UHGV virus genome: UHGV-0191815
Strand: one strand, 5' to 3'
Length of the DNA: 53,795 nucleotides
Source: a virus
Shown here: positions 19,366 to 24,816 of the stretch, piece after piece
Layout of the letters: each line of letters opens with the position of its first letter
How positions within the stretch are numbered: position 1 is the first letter of the stretch
Position numbers and translations under genes: made by a program
Notes under the pieces: generated by a model
Databases searched by the model: none
Seen by the model: the letters and a program-made list of their open reading frames with translations, nothing else
What the model was told of the DNA's origin: nothing

Positions 19366-19558
19366 ACAGTACAAAGACTGGAAGATTCCAGAAGAAGCAA
19401 CAAAGGCAGCGCCCGGAATTTTTTCGGGCGTTTATTTTTATATGGAAGGTAAATGGTATTTCGGCAGCAGGCCGGATCATTATTATCAAGAATTATGCAA
19501 GTCTCACACATGGGATATTAAGGAACGCGTGCAAGGTGGTGTAATAGACGAGGTTTAA
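19355..19558 (+). CDS. Hypothetical protein (67 aa)
   Basis: ORF in coupled series. Confidence 0.4.
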   Translation: MKFKQYKDWKIPEEATKAAPGIFSGVYFYMEGKWYFGSRPDHYYQELCKSHTWDIKERVQGGVIDEV

Positions 19559-19559
19559 A

Positions 19560-19796
19560 ATGGTTAAGTGTTTTTTAAACTGGTTAAAGACGTGGCTTTT
19601 GTGTACGCTTCGTGTTTTTTTGGTGTTCGGTTGCGCTATCGTCGTATTTACGCTGGGTGTGATGTTTGTTACATGGTCAGTTCCTGAATTTAACGACATT
19701 GATGGTATTCTTTTTACGGTGCGTGTTTTATTGGCTGTTAGCGCATTCATTGGTTTTTGCTGGACTGTAGCGCCTGATTGGGAAGATGAATGGTGA
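19560..19796 (+). CDS. Small integral membrane protein (78 aa, 2-3 predicted TM segments)
   Basis: Hydrophobic stretches LLCTLRVFLVFGCAIVVFTLGVMFV and LLAVSAFIGFCWTV. Confidence 0.45.
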   Translation: MVKCFLNWLKTWLLCTLRVFLVFGCAIVVFTLGVMFVTWSVPEFNDIDGILFTVRVLLAVSAFIGFCWTVAPDWEDEW

Positions 19797-20034
19797 TCCT
19801 ATGGCTTTGTTTAATATGTCAGAGCCGCAATTCAACGCCGTAAAAACTGCCGCGCGTGCGGCGCTTTCTGCCTGCAAAGCAGAGGCGGAAAGAAACGGCT
19901 ACAGCGATAAAGCTACGCGGCTGATATTAGAAAAGCATTATCGCAAGGTCGCCCCGCTAATCAGCATTGAGCGTTTTGTGTGGTTGGTTGGGTATCTCAA
20001 TAATAGATGGGGGACTGACCAGGATTATTTTTAG
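19786..20034 (+). CDS. Hypothetical protein (about 80 aa)
   Basis: ORF in coupled series. Confidence 0.4.
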   Translation: MNGDPMALFNMSEPQFNAVKTAARAALSACKAEAERNGYSDKATRLILEKHYRKVAPLISIERFVWLVGYLNNRWGTDQDYF

Positions 20035-20042
20035 TGGGGGTA

Positions 20043-20585
20043 ATGATGAAAAATGATTTCGGAGGCAGCAACACGCCAAAGGAAATTAAAGACCTGTGGC
20101 AGACGCCAAAACCAGTATTCAGGGGAATGGATCGTGAGTTCGAATTCGTCGCTGACGTTGCGGCAAATAAGGAAAATGCGCTAGTTCCGCGATATATAAC
20201 CGAAGAAATGGACACGTTGCATTATCCGTGGGGAGCGGTGGCAATGCCTGGTGATTATGTGTGGATGAATCCGCCATACTCAAATCCGGGTCCATTTGTT
20301 GATAAAGCTGCGCTCGAACATCAACGGAATCACATCGGTTGCGTGATGTTGTTGCCCGCTGACATTTCTGTTAGCTGGTTCATGAACGGCGTTGAGACGG
20401 CAAACGAGTGCCGATTGGTAACGCGCGGGCGGCTGGCGTTTATTAATGCTGCGACTGGTAAGCCAGTAAGCGGAAACAACAAAGGCAGCTTGTTTTTGAT
20501 CTGGCATCCACGGTGCAAACATGAATGCATTTTTACTCACATAACACGTAAAGAGCTATATGCAAGAGGTGCAGATAATGACTAA
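20043..20585 (+). CDS. Phage-type DNA N6-adenine methyltransferase (Dam family)
   Basis: Catalytic NPPY motif (YVWMNPPYS) and overall layout of small phage Dam methyltransferases; RBS ggggg. Confidence 0.75.
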   Translation: MMKNDFGGSNTPKEIKDLWQTPKPVFRGMDREFEFVADVAANKENALVPRYITEEMDTLHYPWGAVAMPGDYVWMNPPYSNPGPFVDKAALEHQRNHIGCVMLLPADISVSWFMNGVETANECRLVTRGRLAFINAATGKPVSGNNKGSLFLIWHPRCKHECIFTHITRKELYARGADND

Positions 20586-21075
20586 TGCAGCAGATTTACT
20601 ACGACTTGCAGCGGAAACAATAGAGCAAAGGGGCAAACAAAACGGATACGACAGAAAGCAGGAAAAATCAGCGCCTAAAATAGCCACTATATACAACGCT
20701 AAGAAGGGAGCAAATTTAACCCCACTTGATGTATGGGATCTGATGATTTGTCTTAAGGAGGCGCGTTTAGAGGCCATTTTAGCCAATGGCAGCGATCCTA
20801 CTGACACTTTAGTTGACCTAATCAGCTACAGCGCACTAAAAGCTGAGCAAATATTGAATAATCGGGATGAAGAGTTAAAGAAAAATAAGTTCACTGAAGA
20901 CAATATTAATGATGGAATAATAAATGACGCAGCAATAACAAGCTGTAAGGGATTGCCACCTTCAATGCTTAACCCTCAATGCGGTTGTATTTCAACTCGG
21001 CTTGATTTTAATTTCAAAAGATCTGAGGCTATTCGCGATAAGAGGTATGACCCAAATGAAGAAGGTGACAATTGA
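20578..21075 (+). CDS. Hypothetical protein (165 aa)
   Basis: ORF between the two methyltransferase genes. Confidence 0.45.
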   Translation: MTNAADLLRLAAETIEQRGKQNGYDRKQEKSAPKIATIYNAKKGANLTPLDVWDLMICLKEARLEAILANGSDPTDTLVDLISYSALKAEQILNNRDEELKKNKFTEDNINDGIINDAAITSCKGLPPSMLNPQCGCISTRLDFNFKRSEAIRDKRYDPNEEGDN

Positions 21076-21559
21076 CAGGTTATTGGCCTGCGTTTATGTC
21101 GCCGTTTTCGTGATCATCAACCTCATTGTTAACCATTGCGGCCCGTGTGTAATTCCGATCACTACGGTAGCCGCAGTGTGTGTAAATATGATGATCCGCG
21201 ACTTTTTGTTATATGACGGCGGTATTAAGTGGTCGGCTACAACATGCGCAGCCGCTGGCGCAATCACGGTAATGATAAATTACGATGCGGGAATGGTGGC
21301 AATTGCGTCATTTGTCGCGGTTGTTTCCGGTGCGCTTATTTCTGGCTGTGTTTACCGTGTTTTGCCTGGTGATTTCGATTCTAAGCGCTGGCCTGCAAAT
21401 ATAGCTTCAGCCATCGGGGATGCGCTGATTTTTCCCACGCTGTCGTTCATGGCGTTTATGCCGGAAATATCAGCCATGCAATTCATCTCAAAAATGGCAG
21501 CGGTGACAGTGATCACTATCATCATGCGCCGCTATTTCACGTTTGAGGGAAGAAAATGA
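21056..21559 (+). CDS. Integral membrane protein (about 4 TM segments)
   Basis: MKKVTIDRLLACVYVAVFVIINLIV...; multiple hydrophobic helices; RBS aagagg. Confidence 0.5.
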   Translation: MKKVTIDRLLACVYVAVFVIINLIVNHCGPCVIPITTVAAVCVNMMIRDFLLYDGGIKWSATTCAAAGAITVMINYDAGMVAIASFVAVVSGALISGCVYRVLPGDFDSKRWPANIASAIGDALIFPTLSFMAFMPEISAMQFISKMAAVTVITIIMRRYFTFEGRK

Positions 21560-22344
21560 GAAAGGCTAAACACTGGTTAAATAATTGGCTAAGAAACTGG
21601 GTTGTGTGGTCGCTGTACGACGGCAGCGGGTACGCCGTTAAAGACTGGGCGGAAGCGGGATATAAGTGCTATTGCTTCAACTATGACGGCGCAAATCACG
21701 GCGATTATGAAGGCGTTAAAATCATTCACCCGAATATTGAATACGTTAACGTATGGATTGATAGTCACTTCCTGGTGATGTTCTCGCCTGAATTGTCTGT
21801 TTATCCAGAGCCTGATATTATCCTGGGCTTCCCGCCGTGCGACGATCTCGCCGTGTCTGGCGCTCGCTGGTTCGCTGATAAACGGAAAAAAGATCCTGAC
21901 TTCCAGGTGAAGGCGGCTAATAGCGCAAAACTGGTAGAAAAGCTGGCGAATATGCACAACGTGCCGTGGATGGTGGAAAATCCGGTGGGAGCACTGTCAA
22001 CGCTATGGCGTAAACCGGATTTTATCTTCAATCCTTGCGCTTACGGTGGCTACCTTCCGGAAGATGACAAACATCCTGCCTTCCCTGAATACATAGCCGC
22101 CCGCGACGCATACACGAAGAAAACTTGTATTTGGTGCGGCAACGGATTTAAACAGCCGCTGTTTCGGCCTGTACCAATGCCGGACGAATTGGAAGACAGT
22201 AAACAGCACGCTAAGTTAGGAGGAAAGTCAAAGCGCACTAAGATGATCCGCTCACTAACGCCGCGAGGCTTTGCCCGTGCTGTATTCCTGGCTAACGACA
22301 GGGCCATCAATCGTAATACGCTCAACAGCGTTTTACCGGACTGA
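21556..22344 (+). CDS. Putative DNA (cytosine-5) methyltransferase
   Basis: Motif I-like LYDGSGY, motif IV-like GFPPCDDLAVSG, motif VI-like ENPVGAL. Confidence 0.55.
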   Translation: MRKAKHWLNNWLRNWVVWSLYDGSGYAVKDWAEAGYKCYCFNYDGANHGDYEGVKIIHPNIEYVNVWIDSHFLVMFSPELSVYPEPDIILGFPPCDDLAVSGARWFADKRKKDPDFQVKAANSAKLVEKLANMHNVPWMVENPVGALSTLWRKPDFIFNPCAYGGYLPEDDKHPAFPEYIAARDAYTKKTCIWCGNGFKQPLFRPVPMPDELEDSKQHAKLGGKSKRTKMIRSLTPRGFARAVFLANDRAINRNTLNSVLPD

Positions 22345-22366
22345 AATTTACAAAATGGCGTCATTG

Positions 22367-22382
22367 TGTGATTTGTGTCACA
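22367..22382. promoter_or_regulatory. Perfect palindrome TGTGA-tttgtg-TCACA (CRP-consensus-like, or a phage operator)
   Basis: Read directly; lies just upstream of a candidate promoter. Confidence 0.4.
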
Positions 22383-22398
22383 TAATGGCGCTTTTCTT

Positions 22399-22427
22399 CT
22401 TGTTTACGTGTATCCATTTTGTATACT
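22399..22427 (+). promoter_or_regulatory. Candidate internal promoter (-35 cttgtt, -10 TATACT)
   Basis: -10 TATACT at 22422-22427 with a 17-bp spacer; overlaps ccattttgtatac, a copy of the recurring motif. Confidence 0.35.
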
Positions 22428-22440
22428 GCAAACAAAATAA

Positions 22441-22474
22441 ACGCTCTTTAAAAATCCGGTGGCGCTGCAATGCG
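22441..22474 (+). promoter_or_regulatory. nut-like element: boxA CGCTCTTTAAAAA + hairpin CGCTGCAATGCG
   Basis: boxA matches lambda nut boxA (CGCTCTTA) closely; the whole element is near-identical to the minus-strand copy at 13713-13750. Confidence 0.45.
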
Positions 22475-22502
22475 TAAAAGTCACATGAAAGGAGTGTGAG
22501 CT

Positions 22503-22679
22503 ATGTCTTTCGATTATTACCAATGGCATGACGACTATGAACGAGAAAGCGTCATGCGTGCGATGTGCAACATGTGCGATACGAAGAAAGGAGAATGTAA
22601 CGAGTGCAACGAGTGTTTAGATCATTGGCTAAAGGCCGGACGCGACGAAAGGCGGAGCGAAACAGAAAATCAAAAATAA
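22503..22679 (+). CDS. Small Cys-rich protein (58 aa), possible zinc ribbon
   Basis: MSFDYYQWHDDYERESVMRAMCNMCDTKKGECNECNECLDHWLKAGRDERRSETENQK; under 60 aa so absent from the ORF track. Confidence 0.4.
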   Translation: MSFDYYQWHDDYERESVMRAMCNMCDTKKGECNECNECLDHWLKAGRDERRSETENQK

Positions 22680-22693
22680 TAGGGGTGATTTTT

Positions 22694-23305
22694 ATGCAAA
22701 ACCCTAAGAAACCAATCAGAAGGCGATGCAAATGCTGTGGCGCTTTCTTCGAACCTAAATACCACAATCAAACGTGGTGCAGTGATGACTGCCTGGATCA
22801 ACTTAAGTTCGAACAGCTATGCCGTGACCGTGAAAACGCAATGAAGGCGATTGAACGGAAAAAGCGCCGCGACAGCCAGCGGGAAGAGCGCAACCGGAAG
22901 CGGAAGGAGAAGCAGTTACACCCGCGAAGCTACTGGATACACCAAGCACAAACTGTATTTAACGCATACATCCGCGAACGTGATGCGGGGCAACCGTGTA
23001 TATCTTGCGGTACTTACTACGGTGATCAATGCGGTTGGGATGCCGGACATTACAGGACAGTAGCGGCAGCAGGACATCTTCGATTCAATGAAGATAACGT
23101 GCATCGTCAATGCAAACACTGCAATCAGAGACTGGACGGCAACATAGGAGGGTATCGCCCAGCACTGATTAGAAAAATTGGCCTTGCCAGGGTGGAAGTG
23201 CTGGAGAACAACAACGAAGTTCACAAATGGACTATCGAAGAATGTAAGGAGATCGCAAAAGTTTATCAGGCTAAGTTAAACGCCTTAAGGAGAAAGGCAG
23301 CATGA
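22694..23305 (+). CDS. ninG: NinG (Rap) recombination endonuclease
   Basis: Collinear similarity to lambda NinG: RRRCK.C...F......WCS..C...PRSYWI.QAQ...NA.IRERD...PCISCGT....QCGWDAGHYRT.AAA..LRFNE.N.H.QC..CNQ; start at ATG 22694 with RBS aggggtga. Confidence 0.85.
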   Translation: MQNPKKPIRRRCKCCGAFFEPKYHNQTWCSDDCLDQLKFEQLCRDRENAMKAIERKKRRDSQREERNRKRKEKQLHPRSYWIHQAQTVFNAYIRERDAGQPCISCGTYYGDQCGWDAGHYRTVAAAGHLRFNEDNVHRQCKHCNQRLDGNIGGYRPALIRKIGLARVEVLENNNEVHKWTIEECKEIAKVYQAKLNALRRKAA

Positions 23306-23888: not shown

Positions 23889-24616
23889 TGAATCTGGAAT
23901 CAATTCTTAAATTCCACTTCCCAAAATCGCCGCGTTTATCAGATGAAAGCCGTGGTACGTCCCCGGATGCGCTTAATACTACGGATGCACTAACTGCCGC
24001 AGGTATGGCGCAATCGCGCGTAGAGCTTGGTTACAGTGCTTTTTTGGGGAAGATGGAACTATCACAAGCCGAAAAACATAAGGCCGTAGTTTTGCTTATA
24101 GAGCGCTTAAAGGCTATGGCAAAAGATTATGAATACGTTATTGAACTGGACGAGGCAAAACGCAATGATCTCATTATTCTTGTTGCCGTTTTCGCGTTTC
24201 GGGATTATTGCCAGAGTGCAGCGACCGAAAAAGTTTGCCCTAAGTGCGGCGGCAACGGGCTTTTACCAAATCCATATTGCGAATACACATCGACAGTTTG
24301 TTCGCGGTGCGGCGGCAAAGGCTACGTTAAAAACCATTGCCAACGTTGCAAGGGGCGCGGCGAAATACCGGATAAAGCAGCCAGTGAAGCGGCGGAAATG
24401 CCAGTGTTCAAAACGTGCCAGCACTGCGGCGGGCGCGGGTACTCGCGTTTCCCTGTAGATCTTGTCCGGCAGGCTGTTAATCAGCTTGTATTTCCGGTAA
24501 GCCGATCAACATGGTGGAAGAAATACCGCGCTTTCTATGAAGACGCCATTGCTGAGTTGTTCAAAGAAGAGGCGCGGGCTGACAACGAAATAAAACGAGT
24601 GACGCGGGGTGAATAA
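23888..24616 (+). CDS. DnaJ-type zinc-finger protein; possible late-gene regulator (Q-like position)
   Basis: Four CxxCxGxG repeats (CPKCGGNG, CSRCGGKG, CQRCKGRG, CQHCGGRG); located after ninG-rusA where lambdoid phages carry Q; function not established from sequence. Confidence 0.4.
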   Translation: MNLESILKFHFPKSPRLSDESRGTSPDALNTTDALTAAGMAQSRVELGYSAFLGKMELSQAEKHKAVVLLIERLKAMAKDYEYVIELDEAKRNDLIILVAVFAFRDYCQSAATEKVCPKCGGNGLLPNPYCEYTSTVCSRCGGKGYVKNHCQRCKGRGEIPDKAASEAAEMPVFKTCQHCGGRGYSRFPVDLVRQAVNQLVFPVSRSTWWKKYRAFYEDAIAELFKEEARADNEIKRVTRGE

Positions 24617-24816
24617 TGGATAAGCTGGAAATAAACGATCAGTTTGCTGTTATCTTGTTCGAAGATAAAACTGGCGGCGCATGGTGTAAGAAAGTAACTG
24701 GCGCGGAAGCGCGTTTAATATTGGGTATGGCAAGCGCGTTAAATGAAGGCGAATTGCCAGCCATCCCTATTAAGCCTGTCAAAATTTACAAGCGTGGTGA
24801 CGATAATGAAGCCTAA
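24616..24816 (+). CDS. Hypothetical protein (66 aa)
   Basis: ATG overlaps the upstream stop; first gene of the small-gene block. Confidence 0.45.
   Translation: MDKLEINDQFAVILFEDKTGGAWCKKVTGAEARLILGMASALNEGELPAIPIKPVKIYKRGDDNEA

Follow-up and report, generated by a model that had tools for sequence, protein, structure and literature searches.

A predicted YhhQ-type transporter without a detected DpdA partner between two putative DNA methyltransferase genes of an mEp021-like phage genome

Background

What is the task of a membrane protein encoded between two genes for DNA methylation? The question is raised by the viral genome UHGV-0191815, a stretch of 53,795 nucleotides analyzed at its full length and here called the window. 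Four open reading frames (ORFs), all on the + strand, occupy its positions 20043-22344 and encode, in this order, a predicted Dam-type adenine methyltransferase, a DUF6378 protein, a membrane protein and a putative C5-type cytosine methyltransferase. A sequence-only reading of the same DNA had placed the four ORFs at these positions, which is confirmed here, and had left the membrane protein unexplained. It need not stay so: the protein appears to be a VUT/YhhQ homologue, whose usual phage partner, the DNA transglycosylase DpdA, is absent here.

DpdA swaps guanine in DNA for a 7-deazaguanine base. It is known that the 7-deazaguanine clusters of phages can include a YhhQ gene, that of CAjan being an example (PMC7544227), and phage YhhQ homologues do not correlate with any specific phage group (PMC6884629). 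The relatives of the window belong to the mEp021 group, which a 2025 paper (PMC11893012) describes under the name "mEpimmI" as temperate phages that are non-lambdoid and depend on Nus factors. In that paper gp30 and gp33 of mEp021 are annotated as adenine and cytosine methyltransferases, and no mention is made of a VUT/YhhQ identity. The methylase part of the cassette, being already annotated in relatives, is not new; what is new is the recognition of the membrane protein as a likely VUT/YhhQ-family member, found without its usual DpdA partner. The best explanation of the whole, to which a probability of roughly 0.6 is assigned, would be a coupled early block in which two stand-alone anti-restriction methylases are combined with a short VUT/YhhQ permease acting independently of DpdA.

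Results

Assignment of the membrane protein to the VUT/YhhQ family

The membrane protein (21056..21559, + strand; 167 aa) matches phrog_4899 with an E-value of 2e-45. Against the Vut_1 profile (PF02592) it gives a colinear match, extending over positions 6-149 of 152, with an E-value of 0.073. Close homologues are few (12); a profile built from them was searched exhaustively against 1.84 billion representatives, and 282 relatives were obtained. Vut_1 was matched by 69 of the 72 relatives sampled, with a best E-value of 2.5e-15, and one of the 72 (P0346) is a long QueF-VUT fusion carrying an N-terminal QueF-like domain, QueF being the preQ0 reductase. When the alignment of the transporter family was compared with E. 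coli YhhQ, the characterized importer of preQ0 and preQ1, by using hhalign, residues 8-150 were aligned to YhhQ 14-190 over 139 columns, at a probability of 92.7% (E 4.3e-7). Several hydrophobic stretches are seen in a hydropathy scan of the 167 aa, and 6 transmembrane segments were predicted by TMHMM and Phobius in the annotation of mEp021. All together, these results identify the protein, by homology, as a short and divergent member of the VUT/YhhQ family, predicted to reside in the inner membrane and most likely moving 7-deazaguanine bases (preQ0, preQ1 or queuine) across it. For the substrate itself the indications come from gene linkage, namely the QueF-VUT fusion and the DpdA neighbours described below.

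All four genes of the cassette are under purifying selection, as evaluated against mEp021 and MagusPhagus at synonymous divergences (dS) of 0.2-1.0. The ratio of non-synonymous to synonymous divergence (dN/dS) takes values of 0.04-0.05 in Dam, 0.19 in the DUF6378 gene and 0.04-0.15 in the C5 gene. The transporter gene is the most constrained of the cassette, with values of 0.014 and 0.038 at a dS of about 0.55; it is intact in all 7 isolated relatives, and its protein identity is 95-98%, compared to a DNA identity of 86-89%.

Many bacterial and metagenomic short-VUT proteins are about 300 aa long (P0290, P0292, P0294, P0298, P0302, P0313 and others) and run into a signal-peptide-like stretch; their C-terminal region looks beta-rich and ends with an aromatic residue, as in outer-membrane barrels. 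DUF5020 is matched by two of the 72 scanned relatives (P0282 and P0381). The long proteins of all these types, including P0346, may be either true fusions or merged gene calls.

Genomic context of the transporter gene

A tblastn search of isolated phages with the window transporter produced 21 matching phage records, with homologues of 27-35% identity in Drexlerviridae (LHE71, Phc, Opt-719 and relatives), in RCIP0319, in Pectobacterium phage PEAT2, in Acinetobacter phage AB3P2 and in others. In all six isolated phages inspected, the transporter homologue abuts, and mostly overlaps, a gene matching phrog_887 (E 1e-62 to 1e-86), a family labelled "queuine tRNA-ribosyltransferase", which corresponds to the DpdA-type DNA transglycosylase. 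The same arrangement is found in IMG/VR, where 80 loci were picked through one peptide motif and form a redundant set of 9 clusters at 70% identity: in 67 of them a match to the DpdA model lies within 3 kb of the transporter, mostly overlapping it, and four more have a neighbour matching the Pfam DpdA or tRNA-guanine transglycosylase (TGT) models, for a total of 71 of 80. As DpdA is the usual partner in other phages, the position of the transporter among DNA-modification genes has a precedent.

The whole window was searched for DpdA with the DpdA proteins of six phages as tblastn queries, and by a six-frame hidden Markov model search, and nothing better than an E-value of 0.08 was found. Similarly, no TGT, DpdA or preQ0-synthesis domain was found in those window proteins that were compared with Pfam or PHROGs.

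In a neighbour-joining tree, built without support values, the window transporter forms one clade with those of four other contigs (L006, L007, L003 and L097), which is sister to the DpdA-linked transporters of Drexlerviridae. The first is a diverged mEp-like phage, in which the order Dam-DUF6378-VUT-C5 is kept and the transporter is 51% identical to that of the window. In L007, which belongs to an unrelated phage, two phrog_2510 genes lie next to the transporter. L003 and L097 are rV5-like myophages, where it adjoins a DNA ligase gene and, in L003, also a gene for a MazG/PRA-PH-like pyrophosphohydrolase. None of the four has a DpdA gene adjacent to the transporter, about 10 kb being visible for L003 and L097, so that a distant DpdA is possible in those two phages. 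The subclade without detected DpdA thus spans three unrelated phage backbones. A partner gene shared across it was also looked for and none emerged, the neighbours varying among DUF6378, the MazG-like gene, the two phrog_2510 genes and the ligase.

Within this clade, the two phrog_2510 genes of L007 (L007:5516-5926 and L007:5929-6363) are tandem paralogues that follow the transporter homologue, as they do in L008, L009 and L010; an N6/N4 DNA methylase gene comes after the pair in L007 and L009, and is absent in L008. Two rV5-like contigs (L003:6494-7198, L004:3262-3924) carry a short-VUT gene between an ATP-dependent DNA ligase and a MazG/PRA-PH-like nucleotide pyrophosphohydrolase. No rV5-like isolate is present among the 21 phage records matched by the window transporter.

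The absence of DpdA from the window, set against its presence beside the transporter in 71 of the 80 viral loci and in the six isolated phages, could mean that the transporter is a decaying leftover of a VUT-DpdA module, deprived of a present function, and that only the two methylases matter. Two public deletion derivatives of the cassette go in the same direction: P0129 fuses about 35 residues from the start of Dam with about 80 from the end of the transporter, and P0127 fuses about the first 97 residues of the transporter with the C-terminal portion of the C5 protein. A decaying gene is hardly expected to show the low dN/dS, the high protein identity and the integrity in seven of seven isolated relatives reported above, nor to persist without detected DpdA in three unrelated backbones, and we consider this explanation unlikely.

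A different possibility is that the transporter works together with its neighbours, the C5-fold enzyme and/or the DUF6378 protein, in a new DpdA-independent pathway through which an imported 7-deazapurine, or another base derivative, would be built into the phage DNA or attached to it. The four genes overlap one another, their order is the same in L006, and the transporter gene lies directly upstream of the C5 gene and overlaps it, as it does with DpdA in other phages. The association is, however, easily broken. The STEC307 prophage lacks C5 and retains Dam, DUF6378 and VUT, with an HNH gene next in line; in the RM9245 prophage, an HNH gene is inserted between VUT and C5. Because of these two cases, the transporter is not tied to the C5 gene. 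Furthermore, other members of the clade without detected DpdA have neither C5 nor DUF6378 alongside, among the 80 IMG/VR transporter loci a C5-like neighbour is found just once and DUF6378 never, the few contexts examined within the C5 family (more than 7,700 members) show no link to a transporter, and no transglycosylase-like fold is present. Such a joint pathway is therefore regarded as very improbable.

The HNH genes found directly 3' of the transporter gene encode an endonuclease of 175 aa (L102:4511-5038 in STEC307, L103:4518-5045 in RM9245), and a second HNH gene follows NinG in the STEC307 prophage. The insertions look like homing-endonuclease traffic at this junction.

The C5-fold protein

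The last gene of the cassette (21556..22344, + strand) encodes a 262-aa protein matching phrog_757, labelled "DNA methyltransferase", with an E-value of 8e-89. More than 7,700 clusters, mostly of 225-260 aa, are matched by this family, a few of them being named DNA cytosine methyltransferase by NCBI or UniRef. The protein itself has no match in Pfam or NCBIfam, even at permissive thresholds (for PF00145, none at E<=10); the 22-bit cut-off of PF00145 is passed by two of its relatives within the family, P0015 and P0115 (24.7 and 28.5 bits, respectively), over motifs I-IV only. In an alignment of 29 diverse members, three motifs can be recognized. Motif I, the SAM-binding FxGxG motif, reads DGSG (nt 21619-21630; Y21-D-G-S-G25), where S24 is invariant and G23 nearly so. 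Motif IV with its catalytic Cys, PPC (nt 21832-21840; P93-P94-C95), and motif VI with its Glu, ENP (nt 21976-21984; E141-N142-P143), are both invariant, the Val of ENV being replaced by Pro in the latter.

The family profile was searched against the PDB, where the best sequence matches were HaeIII and DNMT3B, aligned over the stretch between motif I and the Cys of motif IV, with insignificant E-values of 0.3-0.4. A direct PDB search with the single 262-aa sequence returned an aminotransferase only, a match considered spurious. An AlphaFold model, based on the family alignment, reached a predicted local distance difference test (pLDDT) score of 84.8 and a predicted template modelling score of 0.85; when this model was compared with the PDB by using Foldseek, the top 50 matches were all catalytic domains of DNMT3A, DNMT3B or DNMT3C, with E-values of about 1e-6 and template modelling scores (TM-scores) of just 0.4-0.5. 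From model and motifs together, the protein is predicted to have a C5-methyltransferase fold, complete with the three best-known catalytic motifs.

Of the remaining motifs, II, III and VIII could not be placed by sequence. The alignment of the family to E. coli Dcm covers motif IV only, so that motifs VIII-X remain unplaced, and the placement of the cofactor-side residues was not achieved. No QxRxR is present in the family, the candidates for motif VIII being the invariant R152 or D184-x-Y186-x-K188, located before strand 190-195. The stretch 'IRSLTPRGFAxAV' resembles fused or compressed motifs IX and X, the alignment to real enzymes ending after motif IV. A conserved insert of about 30 aa lies between the predicted strands 156-158 and 190-195, and the target-recognition region (196-230) spans about 30-45 residues, in part at low confidence (pLDDT 59-75), and is shorter than in the matched solved bacterial chains. 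The target-recognition domain of DNMT3 is likewise small.

The possibility of a disguised DpdA was considered and rejected for this protein: neither hhalign nor BLASTP showed any similarity to the DpdA proteins of PEAT2 and Opt-719, and the predicted fold is that of a C5 methyltransferase. A second alternative concerns the reaction, as an enzyme with a C5 fold might not produce 5-methylcytosine in DNA. It could transfer another group, such as carboxymethyl from carboxy-S-adenosylmethionine (Cx-SAM), in the manner of CmoX, or act on RNA, in the manner of Dnmt2. A C5-methyltransferase fold of the former kind is found in phage CmoX, which uses Cx-SAM, a compound that E. coli makes, and CmoA or ligase genes typically accompany CmoX (PMC12783734). 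No CmoA or CmoY-type ligase gene was found among the window proteins scanned or in the annotation of the relatives. The best structural matches are true DNA methyltransferases, though PF00145 is not matched by the protein itself, and NCBI and PHROG name the family as DNA (cytosine) methyltransferase, which is annotation and not experiment. A reaction other than DNA cytosine methylation is considered rather unlikely. No characterized member of the phrog_757 type, nor any experimental paper on such enzymes, was found in the literature searched.

The adenine methyltransferase and the restriction context

The first gene of the cassette (20043..20585, + strand; 180 aa; phrog_111) matches PF05869 with an E-value of 4.1e-52 and 176.7 bits (cut-off 28.1), over profile positions 1-166 of 169, and scores 143.2 bits (cut-off 97.05) against the TIGR01712 equivalog "phage N-6-adenine-methyltransferase". 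The catalytic (D/N)PPY motif is present as NPPY at aa 76-79 (nt 20268-20279). The predicted identity as a phage Dam-type N6-adenine methyltransferase is regarded as secure, and the family suggests GATC as its target.

In the neighbourhood of the two methylase genes, formed by ipe-like, DUF6378, VUT, NinF-like, NinG, RusA and Q genes, no restriction endonuclease was found, nor is a restriction enzyme annotated, on the basis of PHROGs, in the 50 kb read of the 54.4-kb MagusPhagus genome. As no nuclease lies nearby, the term "orphan methylases" holds. The sequence-only reading is therefore borne out in its claims of one Dam-type and one C5-type methyltransferase in the early operon and of a missing cognate nuclease. 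It had further proposed an anti-restriction or epigenetic role; self-methylation against restriction is the standard reading of orphan phage methylases, and we favour this half of the proposal by analogy, the epigenetic half being kept as a minor rival.

Palindromes were counted in the whole window (1-53795). GATC is not depleted (z -0.78), whereas most other 4-bp and many 6-bp palindromes are: CTAG, GGCC, GTAC, CGCG and AGCT are depleted, and CCGG, TCGA, TTAA and CCWGG, like GATC, are not. Among 6-bp sites, TCCGGA and GGCGCC occur once each (22.8 and 20.6 expected), and AAGCTT, CCGCGG, GATATC and CAGCTG never occur (10-15 expected for each). The behaviour of GATC is consistent with its protection, although it is a weak indication and proves nothing. 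A deduction of the methylase targets from k-mer depletion was attempted as well, and was judged suggestive at most.

The rival view is that the methylases are not mainly devoted to anti-restriction, and exert instead an epigenetic control on replication, on packaging or on genes of the phage or the host, or belong to a restriction-modification or toxin-like pair with an unrecognized nuclease. Many small unannotated ORFs surround the cassette, and regulatory effects of prophage methylases are reported in the literature. Four observations make this view improbable: the location of the genes behind terminators in an N-dependent early operon (PMC11893012) should keep them silent in lysogens; the adjacent genes encode no nuclease domain; NinG and RusA are enzymes that resolve junctions; and the strong avoidance of palindromes in the genome is what is expected under restriction pressure.

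A further anti-restriction function is encoded in L006, where a Lar-type restriction-alleviation gene (PF14354; L006:8523-8750) lies just after Q. Its counterpart in the window, ORF 24616-24816, does not look Lar-like.

The DUF6378 protein

The second gene (20578..21075, + strand) encodes a 165-aa protein matching DUF6378 (PF19905, E 1.4e-8), 100% identical to a public sequence (P0133). It is composed of a conserved helical N-terminal domain of about 95 aa and a variable tail of about 70 aa. The domain is nearly invariant among close relatives; the tail (20878-21075) is highly variable, with several unrelated-looking versions, and the homologue in L006, 99 aa long, has no tail. DUF6378 is present in at least 265 phage records and, in the five annotated contexts inspected, lies near genes for DNA polymerase, primase, ribonucleotide reductase, exonuclease, dUTPase or Dam. 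It appears to be a widespread small phage protein of replication and nucleotide-metabolism modules.

Attempts to assign a more specific function gave no result. The AlphaFold2 model has a pLDDT of 46.5, too low for a fold search, and profile searches of the PDB were empty or produced spurious matches. The PHROG label 'phosphofructokinase' was found to be unsupported. A MazG-like pyrophosphohydrolase was considered because of the MazG/PRA-PH gene adjoining the transporter homologue in L003; by using both a shallow and a deeper profile, hhalign aligned just a 12-residue patch, 'KGxxLTPLD', at a probability of about 1%, and this identity is likewise unsupported.

Phage identity and layout of the early block

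The DNA of positions 19500-23000 is 86-89% identical to that of seven coliphages (mEp010, mEp554, mEp515, mEp021, mEp044, mEp013 and MagusPhagus), and on this similarity the window is classified as an mEp021-like (mEpimmI) temperate phage of E. coli. The cassette is found in 35 of 5,426 complete E. coli genomes. The layout of the window matches that of the mEpimmI phages. Along it, tail-fibre genes are followed by the integrase, by a replication block directed leftward, with a DnaB-type helicase and a replication initiator, and by a CI-like repressor; then come, rightward, Erf and the single-stranded DNA-binding protein SSB, the cassette, NinG, RusA, Q and the lysis and structural genes.

Overlaps of 8, 20 and 4 nt join the four ORFs of the cassette and point to a translational coupling of the Dam, DUF6378, transporter and C5 genes. 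Upstream of the unit, a terminator-like hairpin (19408..19432, + strand) with an 11-bp stem and a T-run coincides in position with TERM_3 of mEp021; a second one, directly 3' of the C5 gene (22357..22392, + strand), has a 16-bp stem followed by a T-run and corresponds to TERM_4. As the bracketing hairpins match TERM_3 and TERM_4, and nutR2 is located downstream of the cytosine-methyltransferase gene (PMC11893012), the label "early operon" is right. Directly 5' of Dam, a small protein of 82 aa (19786..20034, + strand; phrog_303, E 5.9e-24) is homologous to mEp021 gp29 'ipe' (inducer of pleiotropic effects), and its gene has a dN/dS of 0.05-0.06.

Discussion

The following model would account for these observations. 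The block would be located in the delayed-early, N-antiterminated rightward operon of an mEpimmI-type temperate coliphage, where a Dam-type enzyme producing N6-methyladenine and a minimal, DNMT3-like C5 enzyme would both be made only in lytic growth. Judging from their families, the two methylases would mark the replicating phage DNA, so that the progeny could resist restriction in the next host. The short VUT/YhhQ permease would import 7-deazaguanine bases. As no DpdA is found beside the transporters of its clade, and the gene is nevertheless strongly conserved, we infer a role independent of DpdA; the likeliest would be to feed the queuosine-tRNA pathway of the host, or to control the pool of 7-deazaguanine during infection in some other way. 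The transporter would not work through the C5 enzyme. The step concerning host queuosine-tRNA, or the metabolite pool, is the weakest of the mechanism.

Several points weigh against this explanation. The transporter scores 13.9 bits, compared to a Vut_1 gathering score of 27.2, and shows neither the Asp that the family conserves ahead of 'VY' nor the DS of the DSxxFP motif, which is DA here; for these reasons its substrate could differ. The lack of a Pfam or NCBIfam match for the 262-aa protein, the low TM-scores of its model, the motifs that cannot be placed and a target-recognition region far shorter than in the characterized bacterial enzymes all count in the same sense, as do the redundancy of the IMG/VR sample, the missing support values of the tree and the partial view of L003 and L097. 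Finally, E. coli makes preQ0 and preQ1 itself and has its own YhhQ, so that the gain from a phage importer serving tRNA queuosine is unclear.

A broader proposal would be that the whole phage VUT/YhhQ clade including the window has been selected for a DpdA-independent function, either rewiring the 7-deazaguanine/queuosine-tRNA pool of the host or feeding an unrecognized DNA-modifying enzyme, the C5-fold protein or DUF6378. In this general form the idea is doubtful; if true, a transporter feeding one of these two proteins would represent a novel way of modifying phage DNA.

By themselves, the two methylases are routine counter-defence genes of phages and add little. The interest lies rather in the conserved YhhQ-type transporter without detected DpdA, which raises the question of what a phage gains by importing queuosine precursors that are not placed in DNA. 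As to the C5 family, thousands of phage genes would gain an annotation once its chemistry and its target were defined, and a compact DNA-modifying enzyme might be obtained.

Comparison with known systems

The components of the cassette are new members of known families, and the only real oddity is the strongly conserved YhhQ-type transporter without DpdA. The adenine methyltransferase resembles the phage Dam family (PF05869/TIGR01712) in its full-length match above both cut-offs, its size of about 180 aa, its NPPY motif and its location as a stand-alone gene of the early region, and no notable difference is observed. The C5-fold protein departs more from the PF00145 enzymes: the family is 225-262 aa long, versus 324-388 aa in the matched solved bacterial chains, and the window protein is below threshold, carries an insert of about 30 aa, has no recognizable motif VIII and shows compressed motifs IX/X. 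The closest structure to its predicted model is the catalytic domain of DNMT3A/3B.

As regards the transporter, the short VUT-DpdA module of Drexlerviridae (LHE71, Phc, Opt-719), of Peatvirus PEAT2 and of Obolenskvirus AB3P2 shares with the window a short transporter directly abutting or overlapping a DNA-modification gene; in the window, however, the abutting gene is of the C5-methyltransferase-fold type, unrelated to DpdA. With respect to the YhhQ/VUT family (COG1738, PF02592), homology is near full-length and the RD, N-x6-D and FP...F...Q...K positions are kept, whereas the window protein is shorter than YhhQ (167 versus 221 aa) and does not reach the threshold of Pfam. It also differs in belonging to a distinct clade, without DpdA detected alongside. 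Like the phage YhhQ homologues of 7-deazaguanine clusters (PMC6884629, PMC7544227), it is encoded by a phage and is located among DNA-modification genes.

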